From Candidatus Saccharimonadota bacterium (lineage in GTDB: Bacteria; Patescibacteriota; Saccharimonadia; Saccharimonadales; Saccharimonadaceae), in contig JAFZQB010000008.1 in assembly GCA_017552385.1 (NCBI GenBank), positions 1,663-65,662 on the forward strand: a stretch of DNA of 64,000 nt. Reading direction: 5' to 3'. Position 1 is the stretch's first letter. Each line of letters opens with the position of its first letter. This document shows, one piece after another, positions 46,966 to 64,000 of the stretch. The position numbers and the translations under genes were made by a program. The notes below the pieces were generated by a model. It did no database searches. It saw only the letters and a program-made list of their open reading frames with translations, and was not told the origin of the DNA.

Positions 46966-46967
46966 TT

Positions 46968-47228
46968 CGTGGAAAAGCCTGTGTAGAACTTTGTGTGTAC
47001 TGTGTGGGTTTTGTGTAGAAAACTTTGTTCAAAAGTCCAAAATTGGAGAATTGATGGCTTTTGTTTGTGGGAAAATGGTATGTTTCGCGGATAAGTGTTG
47101 GTTCATTGTGGGTAATTATATATATGTTGGTGGAAAAGGTGACCAGGTAAGAAAGGCTGGTTTTATCACGATTTCCACAGTTTCCACATAGTCTATAACT
47201 ATTATTACTTATATAATAAATAATAAAG
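46968..47228. other. oriC part 2: DnaA-box cluster plus AT-rich tract between dnaA and dnaN
   Basis: CGTGGAAAA (46968), TGTGTAGAA(A)ACTTTGT direct repeat, TGTGGGAAAA (47066), GGTGGAAAA (47129) and tandem ATTTCCACA-GTTTCCACA (47171-47188). An AT-rich stretch follows at 47194-47228. Confidence 0.75.
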
Positions 47229-47236
47229 GAGGAAAA

Positions 47237-49359: not shown

Positions 49360-49987
49360 TTGAGTCTGATGCTGGTTTTTTAACGATGTAAAACTTTGTT
49401 GAAGAGGTGAGTTGGTTGAAGAGTTCAGAACGCGAAAAATGAATAGCGGCTTCTTCTGGGAATAGATAGTCGTCTTTATTGGAGCCGTCTGGATTAAAAT
49501 CGGATGGGTCGAAGCCGACGAAACTATAGTTATATGCAGCGCTAGCATATATAAACAGTGTGGTGGATTTTTTGTCTAGCGAAGAAATACCAGATGGTTC
49601 AAGAATAGCAACGATGGTATCTTCTTGGTCTAGGTAGAAGTTTAATATATTAGAATTCATTGCGGCGACACTCGTTGCGGACGAAAAATCAGGGTTTTCA
49701 ACATTAATATTATAGAGGAGGATGATTTCTTCAGGAACAGCTCCGTAGTTAGGAGAGACTTCGTTTGGTGTTGTGTAGTTGTGGTTGGGGTCTTTGTCTA
49801 CAATAGAGGCAAGTGTTTCATTGAGGCTCTCAACTTGTTCTTGTTGCTCTGCTGTGATAACGTTGTTAAATCTATCCTTGCCGATTATTACAACTATAAT
49901 GATAGCCACAATGGATAAAGCCATGATTATTAGGGCAGCGAGTAAGAGCTTTCGTTTTTTATTGTAGTCTATCATTATGTACCACAA
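49352..49987 (-). CDS. Single-pass membrane protein, paralog of ORF 40095-40853 (candidate immunity/partner protein)
   Basis: 211 aa. TM LLLAALIIMALSIVAIIIVVIIG. Shares C-terminal strings with the 252-aa protein. Start overlaps the upstream gene by 13 nt. Confidence 0.6.
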   Translation of the reverse strand: MWYIMIDYNKKRKLLLAALIIMALSIVAIIIVVIIGKDRFNNVITAEQQEQVESLNETLASIVDKDPNHNYTTPNEVSPNYGAVPEEIILLYNINVENPDFSSATSVAAMNSNILNFYLDQEDTIVAILEPSGISSLDKKSTTLFIYASAAYNYSFVGFDPSDFNPDGSNKDDYLFPEEAAIHFSRSELFNQLTSSTKFYIVKKPASDSTN

Positions 49988-50871
49988 TCCTTTCGATCAT
50001 CGCCGGTCTTGGTGGTCGGTATATAATACTCTGATTCGTAAATGAATCTATTTTGTTTATCGGTGCGGCTGCAGCTGCCATTAGACCAACGGTAGCCCCC
50101 AAAGACTCCGGAGATGTTGTTCCATAGGATGCCACCACCAAAGGTTTCTAGGAATAGGAAGTCCGAATTGTCTAGGTGTTCACGATTTGCGTTTTCTTTA
50201 ACACCGACGACGGTGGCATAATGGCGTTGTGCTTGGGCATCCTGTGAGGTTCTCATAGAAACACGCCGTACGGCGGGGCGACCAGCCATAATATCATCAT
50301 ACATTTTTTGGAAGTTACCATCTCCTTGTATTAAGGAAAACCCGCTAGGTGTTCTACCGCGATCATACCTGCCAGTGCTACAGGAATCGGAGGTGATTGT
50401 GTCGTAAAACATATCATAGGCCATATTACGAGAAACGATATCACAATGTCCATTTTGTGCCGTGGAGTCGGTGTGATTACCATTGAGGTCATAGAGCTTT
50501 TTGTCGCTTTGATCAATATGGTAGGCGCGGACCTTTTCGGCAATATATCTTTCTAGACCGGTTTTGCCGTCGGACCCATCATCATCTTTACCGTTTACAG
50601 TAACTTTAATAACGTTGAATGTCATACCGCACATTGTGAATTTTGTAACGCCTTGGCCTTCCTCGGATGGTACATTACCGCCACCCTCCTCTTCTTCTCC
50701 CTCTGTGCCACAATCTGTTTCATCGTCACATGGTCTAGTAAAAATAATTCCCTCTAGAGCGTAGCGCTGTCTTTCTGCGTTCGAAAATTGGTAAGCAAAG
50801 GCTTTAATAGTTATAGCGCCAGCGATAATGATAGATAGTAGAATAAGAGGAAAATAGTTTTTTCTTAACAT
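49975..50871 (-). CDS. Secreted/anchored protein with a putative papain-like Cys/His domain, paralog of the C-terminus of ORF 38968-40092
   Basis: 298 aa. N-terminal TM/signal, acidic G/E linker, then NGHCDIVSRNMAYDM ... FQKMYDDIMAGRPAV ... QRHYATVVGV, matching the same ordered motifs in the pilin-fusion protein. TGCTATAAT lies 7 nt before the ATG. Confidence 0.65.
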   Translation of the reverse strand: MLRKNYFPLILLSIIIAGAITIKAFAYQFSNAERQRYALEGIIFTRPCDDETDCGTEGEEEEGGGNVPSEEGQGVTKFTMCGMTFNVIKVTVNGKDDDGSDGKTGLERYIAEKVRAYHIDQSDKKLYDLNGNHTDSTAQNGHCDIVSRNMAYDMFYDTITSDSCSTGRYDRGRTPSGFSLIQGDGNFQKMYDDIMAGRPAVRRVSMRTSQDAQAQRHYATVVGVKENANREHLDNSDFLFLETFGGGILWNNISGVFGGYRWSNGSCSRTDKQNRFIYESEYYIPTTKTGDDRKDCGT

Positions 50872-50894
50872 TACCTTTATTATAGCACAAATAA

Positions 50895-51572
50895 TTATTG
50901 TAAGGAATTGAGCGAACGGACCATCTGTTGATCGAGAAAGGAAAGGTCGGAGTAAGTGTAAAAGAGTTTAGGCATCGTTTTTGGCTCGCCGTTCTCTAGG
51001 ATAAAGCGATAGGTATTAGTGGAGCCGTCATAAAGAGAATGGGTGAGGGTCTGGACGGTATATGGAGATTCGCCAAAAGCGTAGAGATTGGATTTTGTAA
51101 ACCCAGACGGTAGATTATTGGATTTGAGGTCTTCTAAAGAGTAGCCAGTGAAGGGGTTGTAATAATTTAGGAGCTCGATCTCATAATCAAGAGGGTCGTA
51201 TTTGCCAAAATTTTCAGTGAGAAGACGTGTAACCATGGTATCGCGAGAGGAGGCGGAAAGTGCAGAAAGAGTGAGCTTAAAAGTGTAGTCTCCCATACTA
51301 TCGGTGTCTAAAAGGTAAGAGATTTGGTATGATGGGCTTTCGGAAATAATCGGGAGATAGTCAGAGATTTTAAAAGCTTCATTTTCTGAGAGGGCTTTTT
51401 GATCAGCCGCAAGAGAGGCGTCGTACTCTCTAGAACTATCACCTTCGATACCGTCATTTTCTGAAGAAGTGGCTATGCTAACTATGACCGCTAAAACGAC
51501 GATAATAAGAAGACCAACGACGACGAAGGAGAGAAGTTTGTGTTTTTGAAAGAGGGATTTAATAGTCTGCAT
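50895..51572 (-). CDS. Single-pass membrane protein in the T4SS operon (position analogous to VirB8/PrgL-like components)
   Basis: 225 aa. TM LLSFVVVGLLIIVVLAVIVSIA plus a roughly 180-aa extracytoplasmic domain. The functional call rests on gene order only. Confidence 0.4.
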   Translation of the reverse strand: MQTIKSLFQKHKLLSFVVVGLLIIVVLAVIVSIATSSENDGIEGDSSREYDASLAADQKALSENEAFKISDYLPIISESPSYQISYLLDTDSMGDYTFKLTLSALSASSRDTMVTRLLTENFGKYDPLDYEIELLNYYNPFTGYSLEDLKSNNLPSGFTKSNLYAFGESPYTVQTLTHSLYDGSTNTYRFILENGEPKTMPKLFYTYSDLSFLDQQMVRSLNSLQ

Positions 51573-51574
51573 AA

Positions 51575-53041
51575 CTATGACTCACTTTCAGCATCAGTTA
51601 TGACTTCATCGGCCGGGATATTAGTCTCTGGATTGGCCGCAAGGCGATAGACAGAGATTGGATAAGTGGTGCCATTGAAGCTAGAGGACATACGGGAGAG
51701 ACGGTTTAAAGAAGGGGTCCAGGTTTGGTAAGAAGCGGAAGCGATATTAACCTTGCAGGTGCTATTGGGGCAAGCGCTACCTTTAACGGTTTGCTCGCCA
51801 ATCCAAATTTGGATGTGGCCACCACGGGCATCGCCGCTTCCAGAAGAATAAGCAAGCACATCGCCCGGTTTGAGGTTAGACATTGAAAAAACTTGTCCGT
51901 CAGTGGAGACTTTTGTCCACTTATTGGACCGATTCATATAAGCCATCTGGGAGCGAACGCCGACTTTAGGAAAATCGGTATCGACTTGGGAATAAACCAT
52001 GACAGCGCCGACGAATTTACCACAGTCGCGGAGAGAAAGACCACCGACGGCTTTTTGCGCAAGTTTTGCTGTGGAGTTGAGCGTGTTAGAGCAAGCTTGA
52101 ATGCCGCCATCGGCACGAGGCTTCCAGGCAGTGAGGCCATAGAAAGTCTCACAATTCCCTTCGGTGTTTGGCCAAGACATCGAAATGGCTGTCTCAACGA
52201 TTTTCTTGCTGCCTTCTGTGCCGCTGCTAATGCCATTACAGGAGACGGACGATGAAATGGTACCTACAGTTGACCCAGATATTTCTCCGACTTCAGCGAG
52301 GGCAGACTTAGCCCATTTAAGACGATTCATGAATGCGGAGTAGGCAGATGAGGTTTGTGTTTCGGAAAGTTCAGCGTAAGATCCTGGTGCGTAGTTGTTA
52401 TAGCAACCGGCACGATCGTTGGTGGTGCAAAATGAGGAACGAGGAGTTTCAAAGCGACGATACATAAAGAAGGTGGCGTCTTCTAGAGAGCTGGCATTCA
52501 TATTAGTGACAGATGAGCCATGACCACGCACTTCACGTTGGAGTTCATCGAACAAGTAGCCCAATTGGGCTTCCATAGAGATTACTGGTAAACCATTTGC
52601 GTCGGCGAAATTTTGGAGTGCGGTTTGTCGTCCAGAAGAAGTCCATTGTGCTATACCGAACCCACGTTTGCCGTACTTTTCCCATGAGGTAAGGCGCCAA
52701 GTTGGGTCTGTGACTAGTTCCCCGCCTTCTTTTTTGTTTGGAACAACGCTAGACTCGGCAATGAGGTTGCCAACGATAGCTGCGGCGGAGGTTGCAGAAT
52801 AGCCTTTATTGATGAGGTAATTTAGGGCGGTTTTAGAATTGTCACCCAGGTCGACCAAGTCACCATCTAAACAATTGGATGAGGCAGTTTCATCATCTAT
52901 AAACATAATGTTGTTTTGAGCATAAAACTTGAGATCTTCTTTTGATATAGCATATGCAGAAACTGTAAGATAAGCAGGCGCCACAAAAGAAAGGAGAACA
53001 CTAGAAACAAGAAGAAGGTAACGTTTGACCATATAATACAT
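51575..53041 (-). CDS. T4SS-associated peptidoglycan hydrolase (tail-lysozyme-like N-domain plus CHAP/NlpC-P60-like C-domain; VirB1/PrgK analogue)
   Basis: 488 aa with a signal peptide. AAAIVGNLIAESS...GFGIAQWTSSGR lysozyme-like motif. C-terminal CGKFVGAVMV ... GGHIQIWIG Cys/His pair. The true start may be MVKRY (53032). Confidence 0.7.
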   Translation of the reverse strand: MYYMVKRYLLLVSSVLLSFVAPAYLTVSAYAISKEDLKFYAQNNIMFIDDETASSNCLDGDLVDLGDNSKTALNYLINKGYSATSAAAIVGNLIAESSVVPNKKEGGELVTDPTWRLTSWEKYGKRGFGIAQWTSSGRQTALQNFADANGLPVISMEAQLGYLFDELQREVRGHGSSVTNMNASSLEDATFFMYRRFETPRSSFCTTNDRAGCYNNYAPGSYAELSETQTSSAYSAFMNRLKWAKSALAEVGEISGSTVGTISSSVSCNGISSGTEGSKKIVETAISMSWPNTEGNCETFYGLTAWKPRADGGIQACSNTLNSTAKLAQKAVGGLSLRDCGKFVGAVMVYSQVDTDFPKVGVRSQMAYMNRSNKWTKVSTDGQVFSMSNLKPGDVLAYSSGSGDARGGHIQIWIGEQTVKGSACPNSTCKVNIASASYQTWTPSLNRLSRMSSSFNGTTYPISVYRLAANPETNIPADEVITDAESES

Positions 53042-53114
53042 ATATTATAGCATATTGCGGGCATTATTTGAATGGCCGCAAGATAAGTGGTGGGATTGGG
53101 TGTGTAGACTTAGG

Positions 53115-54941
53115 CTAGCGTTGTTGGGGTTGGATAGCACCTGGATTGGTAGTGATAAGAGATTCTTCAGTCTCAGATGCAATAACTTGGATATGAACGT
53201 GGTTTGGTCCGGCGAAGAAGAGACCTTGTCCGACCGGGAAGCTAGCAAGGCGCTTCTTCTCCTCGTCGGTGAGTTTGAAGACATCGGAGAGAACATCTAC
53301 TGCAGACGACGATTGTTTTAGAAGAAGCTGCATGGAGGAGTTAGTAACAATAGCACGGCCCATTTTAGTAGACATAAAGTCTTCGACATCTTGAGTAATG
53401 GTGGTAAGACCGAGATAGTATTTGCGAGCACGTTTGGCTAGTGAGAAGAGGAAGTTTGCGGAATCTTCGAATTGCATGAGTTGCCAGGCTTCGTCGACGA
53501 TTAGAAGACGACGTTTTTGCTCAGCGCGGACGACATTCCATATATGGGAGAGGACGATATACATAGCAACGGGACGTAGTTCGTCCTCAAGATCGCGGAT
53601 ATTGAAAACGACCATTTGGTTATTGATGTCAACATTGGACTGTTGCGAGAAGATGCCTGCGAAAGTTCCCGTGGTATATTTACGAAGGCGTTGAGCGAGC
53701 TGAGGGCCGGAGCCTTCCATATGAAGAAGAGTGTCGTAAAGATTAATGATAGTTGGTGGGGTGCTCTGGTGGGTGAGCGGATCGGAGGTGATGCCAGCAC
53801 GAGCATAAGTGTCAATGAGAGCTTGGTCAAGATCAGCTTCTTCGTTAGGCGTGAGCGGAATAGCTGGCTGTCCATTTACGGGTGTGCCACTGAGCATAAG
53901 ACGGAAAAGACCATGTAGTGTAACGAGGTTGGCACGGAGCGCATCGTTGGCATCTTCAGAGTCGACGACTTTTGGTAGGTCGAAAGGATTGATCCGGACA
54001 TCAGAGTTGAGACTTAAGCGGATATAGGAACCGCCGACGGCGTCACAGAGCTTTTGGTACTCGTTTTCTGGATCAATGATAATGATTTCACTACCGATCA
54101 TCATGGAGCGAAGAGCTTCGAGTTTAACGGTGAAAGATTTACCTGCACCGGACTTAGCGAAGACGACCATATTAGCATTTTCTAGCGAGAAGCGATCGAA
54201 GATGACGAGGCCGTTGTTGTGCATGTTGATACCGTAGAGGATGCCTTTCTCTTGAGTGAGATCGGCGGAAGTGAATGGGAAGGAGGTAGAAATAGCGCCC
54301 GTATTCATGTTGCGGCGAATTTGAAGTTGGTCGGTACAAAGTGGCATACAAGACTGCATCCCTTGTTCCTGTTGAGAAGAAGCGACTTTGGAAAAGACCA
54401 TTTGTTGGCCAAAAAGAGTTTCTATTTTTTGGCGGACGAACTTTAGCTCGTCTAGTGAGTCGGCCCAAAGGGTAACATAAAGGCCAAAACGGAAGAAACG
54501 TTCGGCGCCGACTTGGAGCTGATCGCGAAGCTCCTCAGCATCGTTGATGGCTGCTTCAAGTTCTGGATCACGAATGCGGCCTCTCTCGGCGTTAACGTTC
54601 ATACTAGCTTCGAGCTGGGTAACTTTCTTGCGAAGGTTTTTCATAACTACGCCAGTATCGACAGGATAAATGAACATGGAGATATCAAGGACCTCGTCGA
54701 TATTAATGAGTGGCGAGAGCCAACCGGTATAAAGAGAGCGTGGGTATCCGTAAACATACATAGTGAGGCCGTATTTGGTGCCAAGGCGAAAATGGTCGGA
54801 TTGAATTTCGAGCGAGGATGGAGAAATAAGGTCGCGAAGGGTGGTAATTCCCTGCTCAAACGCCTGTTGGATTTGTTGGTCTTCGTTGATTTGGCTAGAA
54901 GCGCCGATTTGCGCGGCAGTTTTTTTATTTTTCTTAGGCAT
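53115..54941 (-). CDS. virB4: VirB4-family T4SS ATPase (PrgJ/TraE-like)
   Basis: 608 aa. Walker A VFAKSGAGKSFTVK and Walker B RLLIVDEAWQL. N-terminal domain YGYPRSLYTGWLSPLI is typical of Gram-positive VirB4. Confidence 0.9.
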   Translation of the reverse strand: MPKKNKKTAAQIGASSQINEDQQIQQAFEQGITTLRDLISPSSLEIQSDHFRLGTKYGLTMYVYGYPRSLYTGWLSPLINIDEVLDISMFIYPVDTGVVMKNLRKKVTQLEASMNVNAERGRIRDPELEAAINDAEELRDQLQVGAERFFRFGLYVTLWADSLDELKFVRQKIETLFGQQMVFSKVASSQQEQGMQSCMPLCTDQLQIRRNMNTGAISTSFPFTSADLTQEKGILYGINMHNNGLVIFDRFSLENANMVVFAKSGAGKSFTVKLEALRSMMIGSEIIIIDPENEYQKLCDAVGGSYIRLSLNSDVRINPFDLPKVVDSEDANDALRANLVTLHGLFRLMLSGTPVNGQPAIPLTPNEEADLDQALIDTYARAGITSDPLTHQSTPPTIINLYDTLLHMEGSGPQLAQRLRKYTTGTFAGIFSQQSNVDINNQMVVFNIRDLEDELRPVAMYIVLSHIWNVVRAEQKRRLLIVDEAWQLMQFEDSANFLFSLAKRARKYYLGLTTITQDVEDFMSTKMGRAIVTNSSMQLLLKQSSSAVDVLSDVFKLTDEEKKRLASFPVGQGLFFAGPNHVHIQVIASETEESLITTNPGAIQPQQR

Positions 54942-55773
54942 TTGGTTGTCCTTTCTTCACGTATGTAGTCGCGAGTTGTGTAAAATCGACGAGCGGTTCG
55001 CGGACTGCCGTGTCGGGGTTGTTGAAATCATAGTATAATTCGGCGAGCTGTTTAGTGTTGAGACGGACGGAGCGGATGCCGATTTGTAGTAGGCCGGAGG
55101 TGATGGTGTCAACGCGATTGTTGATTTCAGTCGCAGCTTTGTCGTAAGTGTTGCGATCAATTTGAGCAACAGGCTGAATCTTATTTTTCTGGAAAACGGA
55201 AATAAGGTTTTTGGTTTCATTGAGCTGCTTTTCGTATTCGCTTGATGAATAATATGGAACGATGATGAAGAATGATTTGTCCATGATGTTAGCTTCTTGA
55301 GAAAGAACATCAATAAAGTTGATGTAATCGTCCATGAGAATGCCTAGAAGCATATTATCGTTGTTACGGCGAATATCTGCGAGACGATTAATGTATGGGC
55401 CGATGTCGACACGCTGAGAGCGGATAAGGATCTGAGTCGTAAAGTTGAGAGAGTTTAAGAAGTTCTGGAAGGAATACTCGACGCCTTCACGTTCGGTGTC
55501 AGACATGAGATCGAAGTTGATGGATTGGCAGGCGATGACGGCTCGGAAAGAAGCATCTTTCATAATGACCATGCCATCGCGGAGCTCAGAAATAAGGAGA
55601 GTGGCCTGAGTGGACTGTGGGTTGTCTTGAGTGACTTGTTGGGGGGCTTGCTGCTGCTGTTGAGGTTGTGGTGCCATAACCTTGCCGTTAACAATAGGAG
55701 CATCTGGTAAGGGCTGACCTGGAAAGACGCCATTTGCGGCGGATACGTTTGGTTGAGGTTGGTTTGGATTCAT
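54934..55773 (-). CDS. T4SS operon protein with a Q/P-rich N-terminus; the body resembles a VirB4 N-terminal (non-ATPase) domain
   Basis: 279 aa with no P-loop. RDGMVIMKDASFRAVIACQSINFDLMSDTEREGVEYSFQNFLNSL pattern. 8-nt overlap with virB4. Confidence 0.45.
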   Translation of the reverse strand: MNPNQPQPNVSAANGVFPGQPLPDAPIVNGKVMAPQPQQQQQAPQQVTQDNPQSTQATLLISELRDGMVIMKDASFRAVIACQSINFDLMSDTEREGVEYSFQNFLNSLNFTTQILIRSQRVDIGPYINRLADIRRNNDNMLLGILMDDYINFIDVLSQEANIMDKSFFIIVPYYSSSEYEKQLNETKNLISVFQKNKIQPVAQIDRNTYDKAATEINNRVDTITSGLLQIGIRSVRLNTKQLAELYYDFNNPDTAVREPLVDFTQLATTYVKKGQPNA

Positions 55774-55784
55774 ATCTTCTCTCC

Positions 55785-56714
55785 TTAATGATGATGTAAA
55801 CTAATATATACTTCGTCTCGATCAGCATTGCGATTACGACTTTTACTCGCGCGGTTTGCTTCTTTGGCGATAGTAGCAATGGTGAATTGTTTGTTTTTCG
55901 ACAGCTCGACGAGGCGCTCATGGTTGGCGGAAATAGTAGCAAGGGGATTAGAGGGGAGCTGTTCTTCGGGTATTTGGGTCGCATCGGTGGCTTTGGCAGA
56001 AGAGACGGCTGGAGCAACTGGGGCTGGAGGAGTAATAGGTGTGGTTTGGGTGAGATTAGCGGCGTTAAACTGAGGCATTGGTGGCTCTTCGGGAGCAGCG
56101 GGCTGTATGGGATTATTAGCAGCGATGGCGGCGCGCATTTGTTGAATAATTTCAGCGCGACGTAAGTCTGCTTCAGAGGAAAGATCGGTAGAAAGTTGTT
56201 CGGAGTGGTAGTTTTCGAAAATGTCGGGCGTCGATTCGGCTTCGGCGATAAATTCATCACGGATTACAGAATCAGTAGAAGAAGCCAAACCTTCTTTAAT
56301 TGAAAGACCTTCGCTATCCACGACGTTTGCAAGGAAGGAAAGACGACGCCCGGCTTCTTCTTCAGTAATGTCTTTGGTGAGTGATTTCTCGACCGTCTTT
56401 GGAACGGTGATCCTAATAGTGGATTCTCGTTGACCTGGGCGCCAGCAACGTTTGTTCGGCTTAAGATGGAAACTGATAATAGCAGCAACGTAGGTTTCCA
56501 TAGGCTGGTCTTTGCGAAGAGGAAGTGCAAGAATGAGCAAGAAAATAGCCGGAATGACGGGTATGATTGCAAAGAATGGAAAAATTTGGCCGACTACCCA
56601 AGCTAGGGCAATGAGGGCGGCGACGATGAGCAGGTAGATAAACTGACGGAAGTTAAAAGGGCCTAGAAGTTTATCGTCCGCTTCGACATCCTGAGGGACC
56701 TTATATTGCGCCAT
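55785..56714 (-). CDS. PrgI family (VirB3-like) T4SS membrane protein with a long A/P-rich C-terminal extension
   Basis: 309 aa. MAQYKVPQDVEADDKLLGPFNFRQFIYLLIVAAL... is the PrgI-type start, followed by two TM segments. Confidence 0.7.
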   Translation of the reverse strand: MAQYKVPQDVEADDKLLGPFNFRQFIYLLIVAALIALAWVVGQIFPFFAIIPVIPAIFLLILALPLRKDQPMETYVAAIISFHLKPNKRCWRPGQRESTIRITVPKTVEKSLTKDITEEEAGRRLSFLANVVDSEGLSIKEGLASSTDSVIRDEFIAEAESTPDIFENYHSEQLSTDLSSEADLRRAEIIQQMRAAIAANNPIQPAAPEEPPMPQFNAANLTQTTPITPPAPVAPAVSSAKATDATQIPEEQLPSNPLATISANHERLVELSKNKQFTIATIAKEANRASKSRNRNADRDEVYISLHHH

Positions 56715-56743
56715 AGTACAATTTTACCATAAACGTAACTGAA

Positions 56744-59700
56744 TTAGAAGTTGGAATCGTCGTCAATGCAACGAAGGATAAAGTCGAGGAGAGAATCGTT
56801 AAGTTCACTGTTGTTACGTTCGTGATGGTCACGGACTTGGTCAACGATGTGTTTGAGGCCATAGGAAGAAAGGATGCCGATACTGTCTTCGTAGAAATGT
56901 TCACCGTCTGGGTCTGCATTGAAAGCATCTCTGATGGACTCCTTGAGCATACCGCGTTGTTCTGGGGTTAGGATAGGTGCGACGCCAGAATCAACACCGG
57001 ATTCAGAACCTGGTTCTGGTGTAGTTTCCTCTTCTTCTGAATGCTCTTTTTTGCGCTCACGATCTTCGCGGTGTTTACGACGGCGTTCGTAAATTTTATC
57101 GCGGTAATCGTCAACAAAGTCTTCGGAGTCGAGGCCAAGGAAGTCACGGACAGAGGCCTTGGTGCCGGCAGCGACGCCAGAGCGACGGCTGGTCATGACT
57201 TGGTCTAAGGTCTTGGTACCATAGAGGAGGTTCATAAAGGCTACCTTAGCAAACTTCTTGCGTAGGGCTTTCTTGCGTTTAGCAAGGTCTTTGTTATCTC
57301 TTTCTTTACGTTCTTTTTCGGCATCAGAATCGGTATCGCGAATTTCTTCTGGATCTTGGCTGTACCAGTCAGGAAGTGTTCGATCGGGTTGATCTTCTGG
57401 GCCTAGGGTAGAAAGAATATCAGGAGCAATTTCGGCGATAGGATCTGGGTTATGGGCTGGATCTTCTGCGTGCTTCTTGAGCTTCTCGGCATAGTCTAGG
57501 CCAAGGGCTTCTATGATTGGATAGAATACATCGGTGCGTAGGCCAAGAATTTGAGATGGAGTTTGCCATTTGAGATAATTCTTGACACGCTCAGCGAAGA
57601 ACTGTTGGTCGACGCCGAAGAATGGATCTTTTGGATCAGTCCAACGAGGTATCCATTCGCCATCTTTGCCGCGCTTGAGACCGGTGAGGTCGGCAGCGCC
57701 ATTGACGATTTGCTCTGAACCAGATGCATATTTGAGCATGGCTGAGATATAAGCTGGCGCCATAGCCATTTCGACTTCACCCATTTTCTTCTTAAAGGCT
57801 TTAAGGGCTTCCGGGTCAGGGTGTTCAGTGCCCGGTTCAATATAGGCGTTGCGAATACGGGCAGCCATATTATCAAAGTAAGTACGTTCGATTTTATCAA
57901 GAGGAGTACCTTCAACAAGTTGAGCAAGAGATAGTTTGGATCTACCTGCGCCTTCTACGAGCCGGCCATGTTCATCGTACTCATCATATCTACCGGTAAT
58001 ATATTCGTTAAGGCTGAGTGTAGTGTTTTGACGTTTTGGTCTGGATTGGCCTTCGTTAAATACACGTGCTGTTTCAAGATTGATATATTTACCAAAGCGG
58101 CGAAGGAATGGGTCGGAGTCCTTAGTGGTAAACATACAGAAGTTGGAGAGCGACTGAGAGGCATGAGTACCGAGTTTAATCTGCTTAGAATCAAGCATAC
58201 GTTCGACGACGTCGGTTACGAGGTCGGTATCGCCGCGTAGGTTGAGGGCGGTAAGACCAGTAATGATTGGATCGATGTCCTTTGCTATATGATCGGTACC
58301 AGTGAGTTGGAAGAGGCGGTCGTAGAGCTCTTGAGTGGCTGGAATAGCGGAGAAGTATGAGTAGAACTTCTTGCCGAGAACTTTGGTCTGGCTTTCGAAG
58401 TCGGCAGCTGCGTTGGCGCCAACAAGATGAGTACCCGCGACATCGCCTTCAAGAGCGGAGGCAATTTGGTGATAACGATCGAGGTCACCATAATTGACAG
58501 AACGGGCTAACTGTTCGGCGCGTCTGGTAGCGTTGAAAGTGGCATTGCTATGAGCATTAAGGGCGGCATCGATGCGATCCTGACGAGATTGAGCATTGTC
58601 GAAGCGGATCTTCTCGCCACGAGTGGTTTCATAATATAGAGCATCGGCAGCGTTGACGTTGCCCATATCGATTGCTTTGAGACGAGCTCGCTCTCTGTCG
58701 TTCGTTGCGTAGTTGGAAAGGCCTTTTTGGGCATCATTATCGTTCTTAAGAATGCGGCGCTGGTATTCTGAGTTTTGCGCAATGAGAGAGGTGAGCTCGC
58801 GACCACGCTTACTGATTCTGCCATCGCGATTGCGAAGCTCTGAAGCGTAGGCGGCGCCACGAAGTTTGGCGACCTCGAGATATTTCTGAGTGTCGGATGC
58901 AGTGCGAACCTTGCGGTCTTGGTGAGTTTGACCGAACTGACGGGCGTATTGCCAAGTGTGAGGCTTGCCGCCAAGGTATTTGGCGCGTCGTAAAGCGACT
59001 TCGTCGGCGGACCAATTGCGAAGCGCGCCAACAGGATGGCTGCTGAATTTGGTGAGCATGGAATTGATTTGGCCTGGAAGCGTGCCGGACATTTTAAGTA
59101 GTGGCCAGCAAGCAATGAGAGGAATTACTTTAACTGCGATACCCATAATGAGAACAAGCACATCTTCAGCAGCAGCAATAATAGTCCAGCCTACAAGAGA
59201 ACAAGCGCCGAACAAGACGGCAAACATTGGGTAGAAGAAGAGCATTTGAGAAAGAGACTTCTTCCACGTCGTAAACCATTTTTCGGTGTTTGGCAGGAGG
59301 TTGCAGACGAAAGCCAGAGGGCTGACCATGATGAGCAGATATACAAACGCTTGTCGGGCTGCAATGGTGACATAAGCGATGGCAACGGCGAAGACGGCAG
59401 TGAGGAGGACTGGTAGAAGGGAGAAAAAGATGGCGCCGAGACCACCGGATGCACCGACGGCAAGGCCGGCAATAAGCCCGCCTCCGATAAGTCCGGAGAC
59501 TATATTGGAGAAGTCAATCTTAGTTCCTTCGGCCGCGCTCGCGATAATTCCAGTAGCGGTGACACTTTGCTCGACGTTAGAGAAGAGTCCTTTTAAGGAG
59601 GCGCCAAGAATGTTCGAGACATCAACTAGAGCCGCACAAATGATATAGCTCAAATTGATAAGAATAGCCGAGACGATAATTTTAGGAAGGAGTTTTTTGA

Positions 59701-60172
59701 TGCCGTAATTAGAAATACCGAAACCAGAGACTTGAGAAAAGATAATAATGAGGAAGAAGATGGCAAATATCACGTTGGTGATATCTCGGAAGATGGACCA
59801 GATTTGGTGGTATGGAGAGTCGGAGTCGGTAGTGAGAGGGTTGATGACGAGCATTTGTTGGATGATCTCGTATAGACCATCTGTAACGCGTGCTAGAAAG
59901 CCTGTCGTAGGACAGACAAGCCAGCCAAGCGAACCAGATTCATCGTAGCAAGTATTAGAGTTTTCCTCGGTAGAGGTTTGATTGTTCTGAGTCTGAGGAT
60001 TGGAATTGCCTTGACTTTGGTCTGTGGAAGTGGTTTCGCTTGTTGTTTGGTCCTGAGTGTTAACTGGGTCGGCAAAAACAGGGGTAGAAATGACACCAAA
60101 TGTTAGAAAGACGCTCAAAACGATAGCGCCCAAAGAGAGGAAAAACCTATTGATTATATTTCTAACACTCAT
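56744..60172 (-). CDS. VirB6/TrbL-like polytopic T4SS channel protein with a roughly 700-aa C-terminal soluble extension
   Basis: 1142 aa. Signal peptide, S/T/Q/N-rich spacer, Cys pair (CYDESGSLGWLVCP), about 7 TM helices, then a large domain ending in K/R/E-rich stretches. Confidence 0.7.
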   Translation of the reverse strand: MSVRNIINRFFLSLGAIVLSVFLTFGVISTPVFADPVNTQDQTTSETTSTDQSQGNSNPQTQNNQTSTEENSNTCYDESGSLGWLVCPTTGFLARVTDGLYEIIQQMLVINPLTTDSDSPYHQIWSIFRDITNVIFAIFFLIIIFSQVSGFGISNYGIKKLLPKIIVSAILINLSYIICAALVDVSNILGASLKGLFSNVEQSVTATGIIASAAEGTKIDFSNIVSGLIGGGLIAGLAVGASGGLGAIFFSLLPVLLTAVFAVAIAYVTIAARQAFVYLLIMVSPLAFVCNLLPNTEKWFTTWKKSLSQMLFFYPMFAVLFGACSLVGWTIIAAAEDVLVLIMGIAVKVIPLIACWPLLKMSGTLPGQINSMLTKFSSHPVGALRNWSADEVALRRAKYLGGKPHTWQYARQFGQTHQDRKVRTASDTQKYLEVAKLRGAAYASELRNRDGRISKRGRELTSLIAQNSEYQRRILKNDNDAQKGLSNYATNDRERARLKAIDMGNVNAADALYYETTRGEKIRFDNAQSRQDRIDAALNAHSNATFNATRRAEQLARSVNYGDLDRYHQIASALEGDVAGTHLVGANAAADFESQTKVLGKKFYSYFSAIPATQELYDRLFQLTGTDHIAKDIDPIITGLTALNLRGDTDLVTDVVERMLDSKQIKLGTHASQSLSNFCMFTTKDSDPFLRRFGKYINLETARVFNEGQSRPKRQNTTLSLNEYITGRYDEYDEHGRLVEGAGRSKLSLAQLVEGTPLDKIERTYFDNMAARIRNAYIEPGTEHPDPEALKAFKKKMGEVEMAMAPAYISAMLKYASGSEQIVNGAADLTGLKRGKDGEWIPRWTDPKDPFFGVDQQFFAERVKNYLKWQTPSQILGLRTDVFYPIIEALGLDYAEKLKKHAEDPAHNPDPIAEIAPDILSTLGPEDQPDRTLPDWYSQDPEEIRDTDSDAEKERKERDNKDLAKRKKALRKKFAKVAFMNLLYGTKTLDQVMTSRRSGVAAGTKASVRDFLGLDSEDFVDDYRDKIYERRRKHREDRERKKEHSEEEETTPEPGSESGVDSGVAPILTPEQRGMLKESIRDAFNADPDGEHFYEDSIGILSSYGLKHIVDQVRDHHERNNSELNDSLLDFILRCIDDDSNF

Positions 60173-60266
60173 ATGATGTTTTTATCTTGTAGATTATAGC
60201 ATTTTTAAGATGAAAAGTCAATAAGAATATCCGAGATAAGCCTTTTTTGTTTCGTGGTGATAAATA

Positions 60267-60275
60267 TGATACAAT
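60267..60275 (+). promoter_or_regulatory. Extended -10 promoter (TGATACAAT) 6 nt upstream of the pilin-1 ATG; leaderless-type
   Basis: TGATACAAT-gaggtt-ATG. The same element is duplicated at 60783-60791. Confidence 0.6.
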
Positions 60276-60281
60276 GAGGTT

Positions 60282-60746
60282 ATGAAAAAGAGATTATTGA
60301 CTATTGTTGCGGGGATAATGATGATAATGTGCGCACTGATGCCGATGAGCGTGAGTGCGGACGAGGGTGGAGGTGGTGGCAGTAGTGGTAGCAGCTGTGG
60401 AAGCGTAACGTTTTTTGGGCTTGATCCATGGTACTCAGCATTAACTTGCAATGCTAGTGGCGAAATAGATCAGAGCAATTTTCAAGGTTCTACTCTTACT
60501 ACTAGTACTATACCTAAGATAATAGGCGTGGTAGTGAAAGACGCATTGTTCTTGGCGGGCTTTGTAGCGGTGGGTTTTGTGATGTATGGCGGGTTCTTAA
60601 TGGTGACTAGCTCAGGGAATCCGACAGCTGTAGTAAAAGCGAAGAAGACGATTTCGAATGCGTTAATAGGGTTGGTTATCTCGATATTGGCTACTGCTAT
60701 AGCAACTGCTGTAATGAATGTAGTCACTAAGGGCTCGATATCTTAG
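60282..60746 (+). CDS. T4SS pilin-like protein (VirB2/TrbC-like, T4SS_pilin family), paralog 1
   Basis: 154 aa. Signal peptide ...MPMSVSA|DEGGGG, variable region with 2 Cys, and conserved hairpin GFVMYGGFLMVTSSGNPTAVVKAKKTISNALIGLVISILA. Confidence 0.8.
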   Translation: MKKRLLTIVAGIMMIMCALMPMSVSADEGGGGGSSGSSCGSVTFFGLDPWYSALTCNASGEIDQSNFQGSTLTTSTIPKIIGVVVKDALFLAGFVAVGFVMYGGFLMVTSSGNPTAVVKAKKTISNALIGLVISILATAIATAVMNVVTKGSIS

Positions 60747-60782
60747 AGCCGCTTTGATGAATTCGTATGGGCGTGGATAATG

Positions 60783-60791
60783 TGATACAAT
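60783..60791 (+). promoter_or_regulatory. Extended -10 promoter (TGATACAAT) 6 nt upstream of the pilin-2 ATG; leaderless-type
   Basis: TGATACAAT-aaggcc-ATG. Confidence 0.6.
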
Positions 60792-60797
60792 AAGGCC

Positions 60798-61241
60798 ATG
60801 AAAAGGATATTTTTAACTATTGCTGCGGGGATAATGATGATAGCTGTTGCGTTAGCGCCGATGAGCGTGAGCGCGGACGATGGTGATGCGAAAATCGAGA
60901 CTACTAGTATTGGATCAAAAGAGGATGTAAAGGGCAAGCTTCCCCATGAGGAAGGCACGATAGCGGATGAAGGTGGTCTCAAAAATGTCGTGAATGTGTT
61001 TCTATATATTGGCGGGCTTGTGGCAGTGATAATGGGAATTGTGGCCGGTGTGCAAATGACAACGAGCGCAGGCGACCCGGCGACAGTAGCAAAAGCGAAG
61101 AAGACTTTGTCGTGGTCTATTATTGGTCTATTAGTAATGATATTGGCATATGCAATCGTGAATTTTGTAATCGGTAGGGTTACGGGTTCGTCAGATGGTG
61201 GTGGCTTCGGTTGTGAATATATAGTGCGGATTTTGGGTTAA
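60798..61241 (+). CDS. T4SS pilin-like protein, paralog 2
   Basis: 147 aa. Signal peptide nearly identical to paralog 1 (MKRIFLTIAAGIMMIAVALAPMSVSA|DDG). Hairpin VIMGIVAGVQMTTSAGDPATVAKAKKTLSWSIIGLLVMILAYAIVNFVIG plus a G-rich tail. Confidence 0.8.
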   Translation: MKRIFLTIAAGIMMIAVALAPMSVSADDGDAKIETTSIGSKEDVKGKLPHEEGTIADEGGLKNVVNVFLYIGGLVAVIMGIVAGVQMTTSAGDPATVAKAKKTLSWSIIGLLVMILAYAIVNFVIGRVTGSSDGGGFGCEYIVRILG

Positions 61242-61326
61242 TTGGTTTCTCTAGATGAGTGGCGGCTTTTGACATGCCGTCTATGGCTTGGTATGATAAA
61301 ATGAGAAAAGAAGAAAGGATATTTTG

Positions 61327-61752
61327 ATGGGCATATCGAATAAAATAAAAATCACGATAATAGTATTAACGTTTGCGATTACTGGGGTTATCGGCACGCC
61401 TGCAAATACATTTGCGAGTACTTGTAGTTGTAGAAAGAACGATGATGGAGGTATTGTATTTGACGGAGCATGTTCAGAGACCGAGAAAGGTATGATGGTT
61501 GCGAATGGGTGTGCCGAAGCCGAGCCGCTCGAGAATACGGTTGTTAGGGTTGTCAATGCTGCGCTCTATGTAGCAGGTATTTTGGCGGTAGTAATGGTAA
61601 TTATCGGTGGCGTGCGATATACAACTTCTGGCGGTAATGTAAATATAGTGACGAAGGCTAAGAATACGATTCTTTATGGCATTATTGGTCTTGTGATTGC
61701 TATCCTCGCATATGCAATTGTGAACTTCGTAATTGCTAGAGTTACGGTATAA
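61327..61752 (+). CDS. T4SS pilin-like protein, paralog 3 (4-Cys variable region)
   Basis: 141 aa from ATG 61327 (AAAGGA SD; the track starts at TTG 61324). VVMVIIGGVRYTTSGGNVNIVTKAKNTILYGIIGLVIAILAYAIVNFVIA. Confidence 0.8.
   Translation: MGISNKIKITIIVLTFAITGVIGTPANTFASTCSCRKNDDGGIVFDGACSETEKGMMVANGCAEAEPLENTVVRVVNAALYVAGILAVVMVIIGGVRYTTSGGNVNIVTKAKNTILYGIIGLVIAILAYAIVNFVIARVTV
61654..61735 (+). repeat. 82-bp tract identical to 62142-62223 (3' ends of pilin paralogs 3 and 4)
   Basis: Base-by-base comparison of AAGGCTAAGAATACGATTCTTTATGGCATTATTGGTCTTGTGATTGCTATCCTCGCATATGCAATTGTGAACTTCGTAATTG in both genes. Confidence 0.9.
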
Positions 61753-61853
61753 CGTAATCTTGAGTAGCCATTGGGGGTATTTGGAAATCTTGGTACTTTA
61801 CAATAATAAAGTTTCTGTTTATAATAAGCTTAAGTTAAAAGAAAGGATAAACA

Positions 61854-62240
61854 ATGAAGTTATCTTCAAAAATAAAGACTGCAGTGATGGCTTTGACGCT
61901 AGCTGTAGTAGGCGCGGGCGCAGTTTTGGCTCCAAGCAACTATGCGGCAGCAGCTTCATGGCAGGACGGTATGGATGCGGCTATGGGCGATGATGTGCCT
62001 ACTGATTTGGATGGCACGTCTGGTGTAGTCACACAGATCATCAACGGGGCCCTCTATGTGATTGGTGTTTTGGCCGTCGTAATGGTTATCATCGGTGGCG
62101 TACAATATACTACTTCTGGTGGCGATCAAGCAGCTGTGACCAAGGCTAAGAATACGATTCTTTATGGCATTATTGGTCTTGTGATTGCTATCCTCGCATA
62201 TGCAATTGTGAACTTCGTAATTGGTAAAGTCACAGGTTAG
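61854..62240 (+). CDS. T4SS pilin-like protein, paralog 4
   Basis: 128 aa. AAAGGA SD and signal peptide. VVMVIIGGVQYTTSGGDQAAVTKAKNTILYGIIGLVIAILAYAIVNFVIG. Confidence 0.8.
   Translation: MKLSSKIKTAVMALTLAVVGAGAVLAPSNYAAAASWQDGMDAAMGDDVPTDLDGTSGVVTQIINGALYVIGVLAVVMVIIGGVQYTTSGGDQAAVTKAKNTILYGIIGLVIAILAYAIVNFVIGKVTG
62142..62223 (+). repeat. Second copy of the 82-bp identical tract
   Basis: Same as 61654-61735. The flanking sequence diverges immediately on both sides. Confidence 0.9.
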
Positions 62241-62254
62241 TTCAGCGTAAGTTT

Positions 62255-62286
62255 AATTCCCTCAGCTTGCTGAGGGAATTTTTATT
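62255..62286 (+). terminator. Intrinsic terminator of the pilin array
   Basis: AATTCCCTCAG-cttg-CTGAGGGAATT followed by TTTATT. Confidence 0.8.
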
Positions 62287-62291
62287 ATGCG

Positions 62292-62324
62292 AAAAAATAA
62301 CTTGGGATTCTCCCAAGTTATTTT
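62292..62324 (-). terminator. Intrinsic terminator of the hsp20 gene
   Basis: AAAATAACTTGGGA-ttc-TCCCAAGTTATTTT. The minus-strand transcript ends in a U-run. Confidence 0.75.
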
Positions 62325-62341
62325 GAATTTTAGATTAAGAT

Positions 62342-62878
62342 TTATTGTACTGGAATGACCTTCGGTTCTTCAACTTTTTCTTTTTCGAAGGTGATTGTCA
62401 GGACACCATCACGAAGTTCGGCTTTAACAGAGTTCTCGTCTTCGCGGACGGCAACAGGAAGAGCGATAGTGCGAGAGAATTCGCCCCAATAGCACTCTTG
62501 AATGTGCCAACGAGTGGTTTGATCATCTTCTCCACCGGATAGCACACCGGAAATCGTCAAGATTGAGTCGTGAATCGAAACGTTCAAGTCAGATTTCTTG
62601 ATACCGGCAGTACGAGCCTTAATTACTAGTTTGTCGGCGGTTTCATAGACATCTACTGCAAGTTGTCCAGGAAAATCATCGCCGGTTTCCCACCCATCAT
62701 CCCCCTCTTCTGATGGTTCGATTTCTTCTTCTTCCTCGGCCGCGGCGAGCGATGCATCTTCCGCAGGAGCGGCATTAGCGGGCTCGTCAGGTTCGAGCAT
62801 AGTGGTAGCGTCGTCTTCAAGGAAGGCGGCTGCTAATTCATCTTCCATCAGCATGTCATCGTTGTTTTTACGAGCCAT
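62342..62878 (-). CDS. Hsp20/alpha-crystallin family small heat-shock protein with an acidic N-terminal extension
   Basis: 178 aa. Alpha-crystallin domain LAVDVYETADKLVIKARTAGIKKSDLNVSI...AELRDGVLTITFEK. GGAGGA SD. Confidence 0.88.
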   Translation of the reverse strand: MARKNNDDMLMEDELAAAFLEDDATTMLEPDEPANAAPAEDASLAAAEEEEEIEPSEEGDDGWETGDDFPGQLAVDVYETADKLVIKARTAGIKKSDLNVSIHDSILTISGVLSGGEDDQTTRWHIQECYWGEFSRTIALPVAVREDENSVKAELRDGVLTITFEKEKVEEPKVIPVQ

Positions 62879-62951
62879 ACTCGGTTTTCCTCCACTTTAT
62901 ATAGTATATGCTTAATTATAAAGACATGGTTTGATAAAATCAAGAGAGAAT

Positions 62952-63686
62952 ATGAAATTTGGCATAAAAAATGTTGTAAAAATTATTGCGAATGGGCTAT
63001 TCCCTCCCCGATGCAGAGGATGTGGAGCGTCTGGAGAATATTTATGTGATTGTTGTAAAAAATACATAAGCGAGAACATGAAAGCACGGCAAGTTGGCAA
63101 TATGAGCGGTGGGCTAACTGCGGAATATCTGGGATTTAGAGATGAAATACTTGGCGAGTTGATTGAGGAAGCTAAATATGAGTCGGTTAGGGGTTTATTG
63201 CCAGAAATTGCAGAGGTAGTGTACGCGGGGTATTTTGAGAAATATGTGACGGAAAATGATGTAGGAAGCTTGATTCTGGTGCCGATGCCAACGAGTAGAC
63301 AACATGTTAGGGAGCGAGCGATAGATCATATGAACAGGATAGTTCTAGAAATTGAGAGATTATCTGATAATAAAATCCAACATACAAGATTGTTAGAGCG
63401 AGCTAAGGATACTGTGCAGATGGGGGCTAATGTAGTTTTGCGAAAGAAGCAAGCAAAAGAAGCGGTGAAAATTAATCCGCAATTTGTTTCGGATGATGGC
63501 AAGATAAATTTGGAGTATAGAAGTGCTAAGGTCGTATTGATCGATGATGTATGGACGACTGGGTCGAGCTTAATTGAGGCGGGGAAAATACTTAAAGAGG
63601 CTGGAGTTAAGAATTTGAAGCTAGTGGCGATAACAAAAAGTCGGGCTAGAAGGAGCCCGACTTTAAGACACGGCGAGATCTATTAA
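62952..63686 (+). CDS. ComF family protein (phosphoribosyltransferase-fold competence protein)
   Basis: N-terminal 4-Cys motif CRGCGASGEYLCDCC and PRTase motif VVLIDDVWTTGSSL. ATG 62952 (MKFGIK...) is preferred over the track's TTG 62931. Confidence 0.8.
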   Translation: MKFGIKNVVKIIANGLFPPRCRGCGASGEYLCDCCKKYISENMKARQVGNMSGGLTAEYLGFRDEILGELIEEAKYESVRGLLPEIAEVVYAGYFEKYVTENDVGSLILVPMPTSRQHVRERAIDHMNRIVLEIERLSDNKIQHTRLLERAKDTVQMGANVVLRKKQAKEAVKINPQFVSDDGKINLEYRSAKVVLIDDVWTTGSSLIEAGKILKEAGVKNLKLVAITKSRARRSPTLRHGEIY

Positions 63687-63690
63687 GTAA

Positions 63691-64000
63691 TTAGAACAAG
63701 CCGACGATGAAGTTGACGATTGCGTAAGAAAGAATAGCAATCACGAGGCCGATAAGGGCGTAAAGAATAGTGTTCTTCGCGTCGGTAACGGCTTTGGCGT
63801 CACCAGCAGAGAGGGCGTATTTGACGCCACCGATGATGAGCATGACGACGGAAATGAAACCGAGGACGTAAAGAATAGTGTTGGTGATATTGCTGATGAC
63901 CCCAGTGCCACTGTTGTTGATGAGGTCAGATGGCATGTCGTCAGTCTTAGCGGCATTGATGCCGTCGCGGACTGAAAGGGCCATAACTTTACCAGCGCTA
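63691..64000 (-). CDS. T4SS pilin-like protein, paralog 5; N-terminus runs off the window end
   Basis: VVMLIIGGVKYALSAGDAKAVTDAKNTILYALIGLVIAILSYAIVNFIVGLF. The frame stays open upstream of the listed Met (..SAGKVMALS..) and no signal peptide is seen yet. Confidence 0.8.
   Translation of the reverse strand, partial: SAGKVMALSVRDGINAAKTDDMPSDLINNSGTGVISNITNTILYVLGFISVVMLIIGGVKYALSAGDAKAVTDAKNTILYALIGLVIAILSYAIVNFIVGLF

Follow-up and report, generated by a model that had tools for sequence, protein, structure and literature searches.

A conserved array of VirB2-like pilin genes beside the type IV secretion cluster of a ruminant-gut Saccharibacterium, with gene conversion in a helix-coding tract

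Introduction

Why would a type IV secretion system (T4SS) be accompanied by an array of pilin genes, when such clusters are commonly taken to encode a single VirB2-type pilin? This question is raised by a stretch of 64,000 nucleotides (hereafter, the window) from a Candidatus Saccharimonadota contig (JAFZQB010000008.1), the source DNA being that of a ruminant-gut Saccharibacterium. Five genes for small pilin-like proteins, numbered g1 to g5 along the window, lie at its end. An earlier annotation of the same DNA (the original prediction) interpreted them as copies diversifying in their surface-exposed part for host range or antigenic variation, with homogenisation of the assembly core. Few systems have been shown to be essential for the epibiotic life of Patescibacteria, and the T4SS with its pilin array is one of them.

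The interpretation favored here, to which a probability of about 0.75 is assigned, is that of a conserved array of PF18895 VirB2-like proteins belonging to a monoderm-type T4SS, in which old and non-redundant subunits would form a heteromeric assembly while recombining along a short tract. The locus is a further example of a pilin array already described and reviewed for this clade. The novelty is modest and consists of recurrent recombination in the conserved tract coding for the second helix.

Layout and family assignment of the array

The array is composed of the following genes.

60282-60746, forward strand: g1, 154 amino acids, PF18895 at 33.5 bits; signal peptide (..SVSA/DE), Gly/Ser-rich ectodomain with 2 Cys, two-helix hairpin
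60798-61241, forward strand: g2, 147 amino acids, PF18895 at 52.6 bits; acidic ectodomain, C-terminal extension of 20 amino acids
61327-61752, forward strand: g3, 141 amino acids, PF18895 at 45.7 bits; 4-Cys ectodomain; acceptor of a conversion tract
61854-62240, forward strand: g4, 128 amino acids, PF18895 at 45.2 bits; Asp/Met-rich ectodomain; donor lineage of the conversion tract
63691-64000, running past the window end, reverse strand: g5, PF18895 at 43.6 bits; inverted distal copy

Membership of PF18895 (T4SS_pilin) was judged by its gathering score of 26.6 bits, which all five genes exceed (range 33.5-52.6 bits). The predicted layout of four tandem genes at 60282-62240 and an inverted fifth from 63691 onward is confirmed. 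The tandem copy closest to the VirB6-like gene is g1, and an alternative TTG start at 61324 is available to g3. A metagenome contig (L001), 100% identical to window 58071-64000 and extending 266 nt beyond it, supplies the complete g5 as an open reading frame (ORF) of 123 amino acids (L001:5621-5992) with its own signal peptide, followed by tRNA-Ser. Two genes separate g4 from g5, a convergent hsp20 (62342-62878, reverse strand) and a comF-type phosphoribosyltransferase gene (62931-63686, forward strand).

Each array protein displays a signal peptide, a paralogue-specific N-terminal ectodomain and a hairpin made of a helix, a short basic loop and a second helix; the cleavage sites were judged by eye from A-x-A motifs. 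The variable segments read as previously described: Gly/Ser-rich with two Cys in g1, acidic without any Cys in g2, four Cys in g3 and Asp/Met-rich in g4. A conserved hairpin is likewise found, but the consensus formerly written for it does not hold for the second helix of g1 (ATAIATAVMN) nor for the loop of g5 (DAK). Amino acid identity within the array averages 35% and culminates at 51% (ten global pairwise alignments). The cassettes shared among the genes are ascribed to two sources: tandem duplication from a common ancestor, to which the g1/g2 pair and the g3/g4/g5 group are owed, and homologous recombination that is still going on in the tract coding for the second helix.

Orthologue conservation and selection

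The age of the paralogues could be evaluated on a contig of a related strain (L003), whose VirB6-like protein is 92% identical to that of the window at a synonymous divergence (dS) of about 1. This contig carries positional 1:1 orthologues of g1 to g5, plus an extra g4 copy, with amino acid identities of 84-88% for g1, 75-77% for g2, 71% for g3, 90% for g4 and 83% for g5 (the ranges correspond to two alignments). Paralogue signatures are kept in this strain, namely the four Cys of g3 and the FFGLDPWY...C motif of g1, and the C-terminal extension of g2 is present in its orthologue. Because positional 1:1 orthologues are kept at dS of about 1, the divergence of the paralogues is old and not ongoing.

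The ratio of nonsynonymous (dN) to synonymous divergence (omega) was computed between the window and L003. Over whole genes it amounts to 0.08-0.20 for the pilins and to 0.00-0.04 for VirB4, PrgI, the VirB6-like gene and the hydrolase. By segment, omega is 0.23 for the signal peptides, 0.12 for the pooled variable ectodomains (0.08-0.18 per gene) and 0.08 for the hairpin core, while dN is 0.19 in the N-terminal ectodomain and 0.07 in the core. Diversifying selection on the variable segments, for which the original prediction had proposed a per-segment dN/dS, was not found: the pooled omega of 0.12, obtained from one strain pair with saturated dS, indicates purifying selection. The variable segments are thus constrained, though faster-evolving than the core.

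The excess of pilin omega over that of the other T4SS genes and the peak of dN in the ectodomain would also suit another explanation, in which the genes are interchangeable variants of one exposed pilin, diversifying for antigenic variation or host strains around a homogenised core in the manner of Bartonella trwL. A tandem copy number varying from 3 to 6 between strains and species and the presence of core conversion, both described below, fit this explanation as well. The same hypothesis is proposed in a survey of such arrays (PMC12102498), and the amplified trwL and trwJ genes of Bartonella determine host-specific adhesion (PMC2883598). However, a variable-segment omega far under 1 and the retention of ectodomain signatures (the Cys pattern of g3, FFGLDPWY of g1) at dS of about 1 speak against this explanation. 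In addition, all six tandem copies of Southlakia epibionticum ML1 were depleted in transposon sequencing (Tn-seq), which is unexpected for redundant variants (Wang et al. 2023, Cell; PMC10633639). Saccharibacteria moreover attach to bacteria, so that no adaptive immunity would select for antigenic variation. Interchangeable variants are therefore regarded as quite unlikely, and non-redundant subunits are favored on the basis of the L003 orthologues, purifying selection and the ML1 Tn-seq data.

The original prediction is consequently retained in part. T4SS-associated VirB2-like paralogues with a divergent ectodomain and a conserved hairpin, and the recent conversion, are borne out, and the case for antigenic variation or host range is weak in view of an omega of about 0.12, of 1:1 orthologues at dS of about 1 and of the ML1 Tn-seq. 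In the comparison of strains, which it had proposed, L003 has positional 1:1 orthologues and also a 492-nt duplication of a g4-type copy.

Gene conversion between g3 and g4

Three stretches of the array are concerned by conversion.

61654-61735, forward strand: 82-bp conversion tract, g3 copy, encoding the loop end and second helix (KAKNTILYGIIGLVIAILAYAIVNFVI)
62142-62223, forward strand: 82-bp conversion tract, g4 copy (donor lineage), exact match to 61654-61735
60341-60369, forward strand: 29-nt patch at the signal-peptide end of g1, 93% identical to 60857-60885 in g2 (repeat family D5)

The exact identity of the two 82-bp copies had been reported and ascribed to recent gene conversion, and both statements are upheld. 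Over the alignable core of g3 and g4 (210 nt), 43 positions differ and 43/43 of them lie outside the tract; random placement of 43 differences yielded an identity run of at least 82 nt in 0 of 200,000 trials. Within the tract, 0/21 synonymous sites differ, against a proportion of differing synonymous sites (pS) of 0.63 for the remaining core (P about 7e-10). The direction was obtained from L003, with the window genes designated W_g and their L003 orthologues R_a to R_d. The tract differs at 17 positions from the g3 orthologue R_c and at 7 from the g4 orthologue R_d, while 14 positions distinguish R_c from R_d. Because W_g3 equals W_g4 and the shared tract is nearer to R_d than to R_c, it was copied from g4 into g3 in the window lineage. 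The 82-bp tract is a recent gene conversion from g4 into g3.

A nucleotide-level functional element was also considered as a cause of the identity and was rejected, as the orthologous tracts of L003 differ from each other at 14 positions. The 29-nt patch is possibly a second, short conversion from g1 into g2, for which the evidence is weak: in this patch W_g2 resembles W_g1 and R_a, and not its own orthologue R_b.

The window originates from a contig (69,256 bp) of a metagenome-assembled genome (MAG), and the 82-bp identity, together with the array structure, could a priori be a collapsed, duplicated or chimeric repeat. Assemblers can indeed be confused at this place, as two contigs (L004 and L005) join the 5' part of g3 to the tail of g4 exactly at the repeat. 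The assembly was checked on the Logan k=31 contigs and unitigs of four runs (X1-X4). In X1, the tract is a separate 82-nt unitig of depth 35, and its flanking unitigs display depths of 20.2 (5' part of g3), 20.6 (g3 tail, spacer and 5' part of g4) and 18.7 (g4 tail). A tract node at 35x between three flanks at 19-21x leaves a single path using each unitig once, g3N-tract-g3tail/g4N-tract-g4tail, which is the order of the window. Contigs L001 and L002, from other assemblies, reproduce the window sequence at 100% and 99.9%, and the gene order is shared by L003 and dozens of species. An assembly artefact, which the original prediction had named as a possible refutation, is therefore extremely improbable.

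Copy-number change and distribution in Saccharibacteria

Recombination at the same place is observed in other contigs. In L003, a 492-nt unit occurs twice in tandem, and at this offset of 492 the identity is exact over 534 nt (L003:1986-2519 = 2478-3011). The duplicated region (1986-3011) holds two identical g4-type genes, the first of which has a g3-type 3' tail and terminator hairpin; copy d bears the 3' tail and downstream hairpin of copy c. Judged from its sequence, this duplication has the structure that would be expected from an unequal crossover in the conserved 3' core.

The converse arrangement is displayed by L004 and L005, which are contigs from other samples of the same study. Both carry a hybrid of the g3 ectodomain and the g4 tail (L004:4348-4773, L005:34-459; window 61327-61735 joined to 62224-62240) directly upstream of hsp20, and thus reproduce the window except for the 488 nt between the two tracts of 82 bp. 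When a deletion form is computed from the window, L005 matches it at 100% and L004 departs from it by one single-nucleotide polymorphism and a 19-nt indel. A real reciprocal deletion product and an assembler mis-join across the 82-bp repeat are equally likely. No deletion joint was found among the window-placed Logan k=31 contigs of X1-X4, of which X2-X4 reach only 3-7x and have gaps across 61600-62475.

In order to place the locus among its relatives, a species-level genome collection was searched with VirB4. At least 578 relatives were retrieved, the best 80 of which (85-94% amino acid identity) were examined; with few exceptions these are gut MAGs, from ruminants and other hosts, labelled 'Candidatus Saccharibacteria' or 'Nanosyncoccus'. 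Pilin-like ORFs, from 1 to 7 in number, occupy the same place beside the VirB6-like gene in 67 of these 80 loci, and 4-7 of them are present in 59 of the 67. At least three tandem copies were likewise counted in 59/67 loci, the commonest tandem number being 3, 4 or 5, and the inverted distal copy occurs in 48/67. Pilin-like ORFs were absent from 13 of the 80 loci; in at least 4 of these (L012, L013, L026, L037) the sequence upstream of VirB4 is shorter than 3.2 kb and does not reach the array. A separate homologue search returned 792 proteins at E up to 1e-5. Among the 120 matches listed, PF18895 is present in all and PF04956 (TrbC/VirB2) in many as well, and those that bear a name are all called Candidatus Saccharibacteria. 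The premise of a single pilin per T4SS thus fails for this clade, where arrays are the rule.

Within the species loci, a g1-like gene usually occupies the proximal position and a g5-like gene the distal one, with turnover among the middle copies. The window has four tandem copies and L003 five, and most of the other species loci have 3-6. In 8 of 69 loci, non-overlapping paralogues share exact tracts of at least 40 nt, without exception in the 3' core; this survey was based on the longest common substring, pairs of physically overlapping stop-to-stop segments being excluded. The copy-number turnover between species is probably due to recombination in the conserved tract coding for the second helix. 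Knowledge of a conserved helix-coding tract that mediates conversion and copy-number change is useful for the choice of copies to delete, tag or co-express in cultivable models.

An extension of this idea, which we hold to be unlikely, is that the second-helix tract acts as a built-in recombination site through which natural Saccharibacteria populations would steadily acquire, lose and newly combine pilin modules. The hybrid of L004 and L005, in which the g4 ectodomain is lost, and the reciprocal duplication of L003 would be examples of such events. Members of one population would in that case differ in copy number and ectodomain repertoire, with selection exerted by whichever host bacteria are available.

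Pilus subunits or channel components

The relation of the array proteins to the VirB2/TrbC family PF04956 is, from profile comparisons, likely but distant. Matches to TrbC/VirB2 and to DUF6112 are sub-threshold. The AlphaFold2 model of g4 displays helices at residues 3-25 (signal peptide), 58-87 and 92-127, with a predicted local distance difference test score (pLDDT) of about 88-94 in the hairpin and 77 overall. A model of g1 computed from the five paralogues only was discarded, its mean pLDDT being 50.5.

On the basis of homology and of ML1, the following mechanism is proposed. The array proteins would be exported by Sec and their signal peptide cleaved. The mature pilins would then reside in the membrane with both N- and C-termini outside and the KAK loop in the cytoplasm. 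A machine composed of VirB4, the VirB3-like and the VirB6-like proteins would extract and assemble the copies, and the product would be a heteromeric pilus-like conduit, or a shaft with minor subunits, contacting the host bacterium. The comparison suggests old, conserved and probably non-redundant paralogues, which points to heteromeric assembly rather than to antigenic variants.

A number of results weigh against this interpretation. The best PF04956 score, that of g3, is 16.9 bits (E 0.0077) and lies below the cut-off of 27.9 bits. A profile of the five paralogues compared to the PDB sequences returned spurious coiled-coil and tetraspanin hits and no T4SS pilin, and a Foldseek search of the g4 model against the PDB gave only generic helical hairpins (best E 0.94) with no T4SS pilin in the top 50, a result that is neutral as to a VirB2 fold. 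Because no solved T4SS pilin was found by sequence or by fold, the 'VirB2-like' label is based on profile similarity and gene context. No Patescibacterium has been reported to carry a pilus, and a recent review mentions only a 'potential to elaborate conjugative pili' (PMC12857230). A search for expression data of this organism found none. The Tn-seq data stem from a different genus, and insertions may have had polar effects within the array. The omega values derive from one strain pair, saturated dS (0.7-2.3) and short segments. Finally, pilin orthologues are only about 50% identical in species whose VirB4 is 93-94% identical; because the pilins diverge far faster than VirB4, adaptive or host-driven divergence over longer times is possible. 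The array may thus take part in host adaptation, as the pilins evolve faster than the other T4SS components and copy number changes from one species to another.

Several of these points would also be accounted for if the array proteins were not pilus subunits at all but small bitopic hairpin proteins, retained in the membrane or in a wall-spanning channel as stoichiometric parts of the T4SS translocon. The term 'pilin' would in that case express no more than a distant homology. Gram-positive T4SSs are generally pilus-less (PMC10633639, PMC12102498), no pilus has been observed in Patescibacteria (PMC12857230), and the generic hairpin fold matches ATP synthase subunit c and PsbZ equally well. 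The tight coupling of the array to the VirB6-like gene in all loci examined and the individually essential, non-redundant copies of ML1 are also suited to fixed structural parts. On the other hand, TrbC/VirB2 profile similarity is present in many homologues and weakly in g3, and the ML1 copies have TrbC/VirB2-family structure hits with a TM-score of about 0.75 (PMC10633639 Table S2). The paralogue-specific extracellular N-terminal segments of 25-50 amino acids, some of them Cys-rich, further suggest exposure or interaction on the outside. With the pilus itself unproven, a membrane or channel role is a serious rival, which we nevertheless consider somewhat unlikely, and the array of heteromeric pilin-like subunits remains the preferred interpretation.

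The T4SS neighborhood

The cluster divergent from the array comprises the following genes.

56744-60172, reverse strand: VirB6/TrbL-like polytopic membrane protein, 1142 amino acids, divergent from the array; faint TrbL_3 match and synteny
55785-56714, reverse strand: PrgI/VirB3-like protein (Pfam PrgI)
54934-55773, reverse strand: TraC-like N-terminal piece, 279 amino acids, overlapping VirB4 by 8 nt (split VirB4)
53115-54941, reverse strand: VirB4 (P-loop_TraG/AAA_10, Pfam)
51575-53041, reverse strand: cell-wall hydrolase, Phage_lysozyme2 (Pfam)
45571-49359: dnaA, dnaN and recF (Pfam scan; dnaA at 45571)

The array starts 5.3 kb from VirB4. Beyond the hydrolase, the gene order continues with three genes of unknown type, then recF, dnaN and dnaA. 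The accompanying monoderm (MPF-FATA-like) set is present, with VirB4, PrgI/VirB3 and the hydrolase recognized by Pfam and the VirB6-like protein by a faint hit and synteny. The latter has no Pfam match at E up to 0.01, its only indication being a precomputed faint TrbL_3 hit, and its gene is syntenic with SEML1_0013, annotated as TrbL/VirB6-like from structure. No Pfam match to a relaxase was obtained among the ORFs of the scanned part of the window (31783-43214, 43747-44796 and 45571-64000). The T4SS cluster is chromosomal, of monoderm type and located beside dnaA.

Some neighboring genes deserve a separate mention. VirB4 is extremely constrained, with 3 nonsynonymous differences over 1408 sites against L003 at dS of about 1.2 (omega 0.002). 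Hsp20 is near-invariant between the window strain and L003 (99% amino acid identity) at a dS of only 0.3, and the hsp20 and comF-type genes stand between tandem array and distal pilin as they do in S. epibionticum ML1 (SEML1_0020 and 0021). In L004, 19 nt of the VirB6-like gene are missing (window 57547-57565; L004:586/587), which leaves ORFs of 880 and 196 amino acids; the gap reflects a frameshift variant or else a mistake in the assembly.

Start-site motifs, promoters and terminator

The following signals were located around the array genes.

60267-60284, forward strand: extended -10-like motif TGATACAAT, 6 nt before the g1 ATG, conserved in the L003 orthologue
60783-60800, forward strand: TGATACAAT-N6-ATG motif at g2 (pattern search)
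61269-61297, forward strand: sigma-70-like promoter candidate of g3, TTGACA-17-TATGAT preceded by TG, 11/12 positions (consensus match only)
61797-61825, forward strand: sigma-70-like promoter candidate of g4, TTTACA-17-TATAAT, 11/12 positions (consensus match only)
62255-62280, forward strand: terminator-like hairpin and T run, after g4 and before the convergent hsp20

The original prediction attributed a near-identical promoter and signal peptide to g1 and g2. The motif is indeed found at both genes, but their 5' cassettes are only 79% identical across 81 nt and the signal peptides about 70% identical. Nor is the motif a cassette of their own: TGNTANAAT-N6-ATG is found 8 times in the window, where 0.26 occurrences are expected, and its ATG is always that of a long ORF. 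Six of the sites are on the forward strand (14568-14585, 17852-17869, 27335-27352, 30183-30200, 60267-60284, 60783-60800) and two on the reverse strand (36038-36055, 56712-56729). It is a genome-wide start architecture and is not specific to g1 and g2; its position suggests that many genes here, including PrgI, g1 and g2, are expressed from leaderless or near-leaderless mRNAs.

The 5' leader of g3 is 70% similar to that of g4 (repeat family D6), and an AAAGGA Shine-Dalgarno sequence follows both of their promoter candidates. The terminator-like site at 62255-62280 is the only one within the tandem array.

A sixth pilin-like module

A search of the window with a hidden Markov model of the five genes retrieved one more, weak relative, located away from the array; it is the sixth module of the original prediction.

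38968-40092, reverse strand: fusion protein of 374 amino acids, PF18895 at 22.8 bits (under the cut-off), E 2e-9 with a hidden Markov model of the five genes

With 22.8 bits against a gathering score of 26.6, it is not a member of PF18895. This protein lacks a signal peptide. Its hairpin at about residues 32-95 is followed by a linker rich in Pro and Glu and by a Cys-rich C-terminal domain of some 250 amino acids, which has no Pfam match. Its gene is situated 650 nt upstream of that of a 734-amino acid ricin-lectin protein (36116-38320), a single ORF of 196 amino acids lying between them.

Comparison with known systems

The canonical VirB2/TraA pilin (PF04956) shares with the array proteins a signal peptide, a two-helix hairpin with a short basic loop, and a gene located in a T4SS cluster. 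It is normally encoded by one gene per cluster, whereas the window carries an array, whose proteins have longer, paralogue-specific N-terminal ectodomains and belong to a monoderm organism.

The closest described relative is the locus of S. epibionticum ML1, whose six-gene PF18895 array (SEML1_0014-0019) is essential by Tn-seq (PMC10633639). Its gene order is SEML1_0013 (VirB6-like), 0014-0019 (PF18895), 0020 (Hsp20), 0021 (ComF), 0022 (tRNA-Ser) and 0024 (distal pilin). Each of SEML1_0014-0019 dropped from 11-15 input insertions to 0-2 by T1-T2, and SEML1_0024 kept 22-23 (Table S1 of the same work). Common to both loci are dnaA-dnaN-recF, the hydrolase, VirB4, PrgI and the VirB6-like gene on one strand, and the divergent tandem PF18895 run, followed by hsp20, comF and tRNA-Ser, and a further distal pilin on the opposite strand. 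In both, the array proteins are small, divergent in sequence and structurally alike. The number of tandem copies differs, six in ML1 and four in the window, as does the order of distal pilin and tRNA-Ser. The essentiality of the array for epibiotic growth is known solely from ML1.

The Trw T4SS of Bartonella (PMC2883598) shares with the window the tandem amplification of VirB2-type genes (trwL, as well as trwJ), a copy number varying between species and recombination between copies, in other words concerted evolution. It is devoid of a coupling protein and its copies are probably co-expressed (Nystedt et al. 2008, as cited in PMC2883598). Copy-number variation and recombination among tandem copies, which typify Trw, were both found across the window, L003 and the species loci. 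Bartonella is however a diderm with an R388-derived system that targets the mammalian erythrocyte (Vayssier-Taussat et al. 2010, PMC2883598), whereas the window organism is a monoderm; the pilin families are PF04956 and PF18895, respectively. Diversifying selection is reported for Trw, in contrast to an omega of about 0.1 in the window.

The widest frame is provided by a survey of 441 VirB2-like arrays of 2-11 genes in 383 assemblies (Quiñonero-Coronel et al. 2025, Microb Genom; PMC12102498). Such arrays are abundant in Saccharimonadia. Their genes stand in tandem or are interrupted by a non-pilin gene, virB4 lies nearby and dnaA often does so too; identity within them averages 25% with a maximum of 54%. 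The authors propose adaptation to different host strains, and the account of the arrays is repeated in a 2025 review (PMC12857230). The window fits this description, with four tandem copies, one more past hsp20 and comF, and a mean identity of 35% (maximum 51%). Relative to the available part of the survey, the present analysis adds gene conversion, unequal crossover, orthologue conservation and the dN/dS of the arrays.

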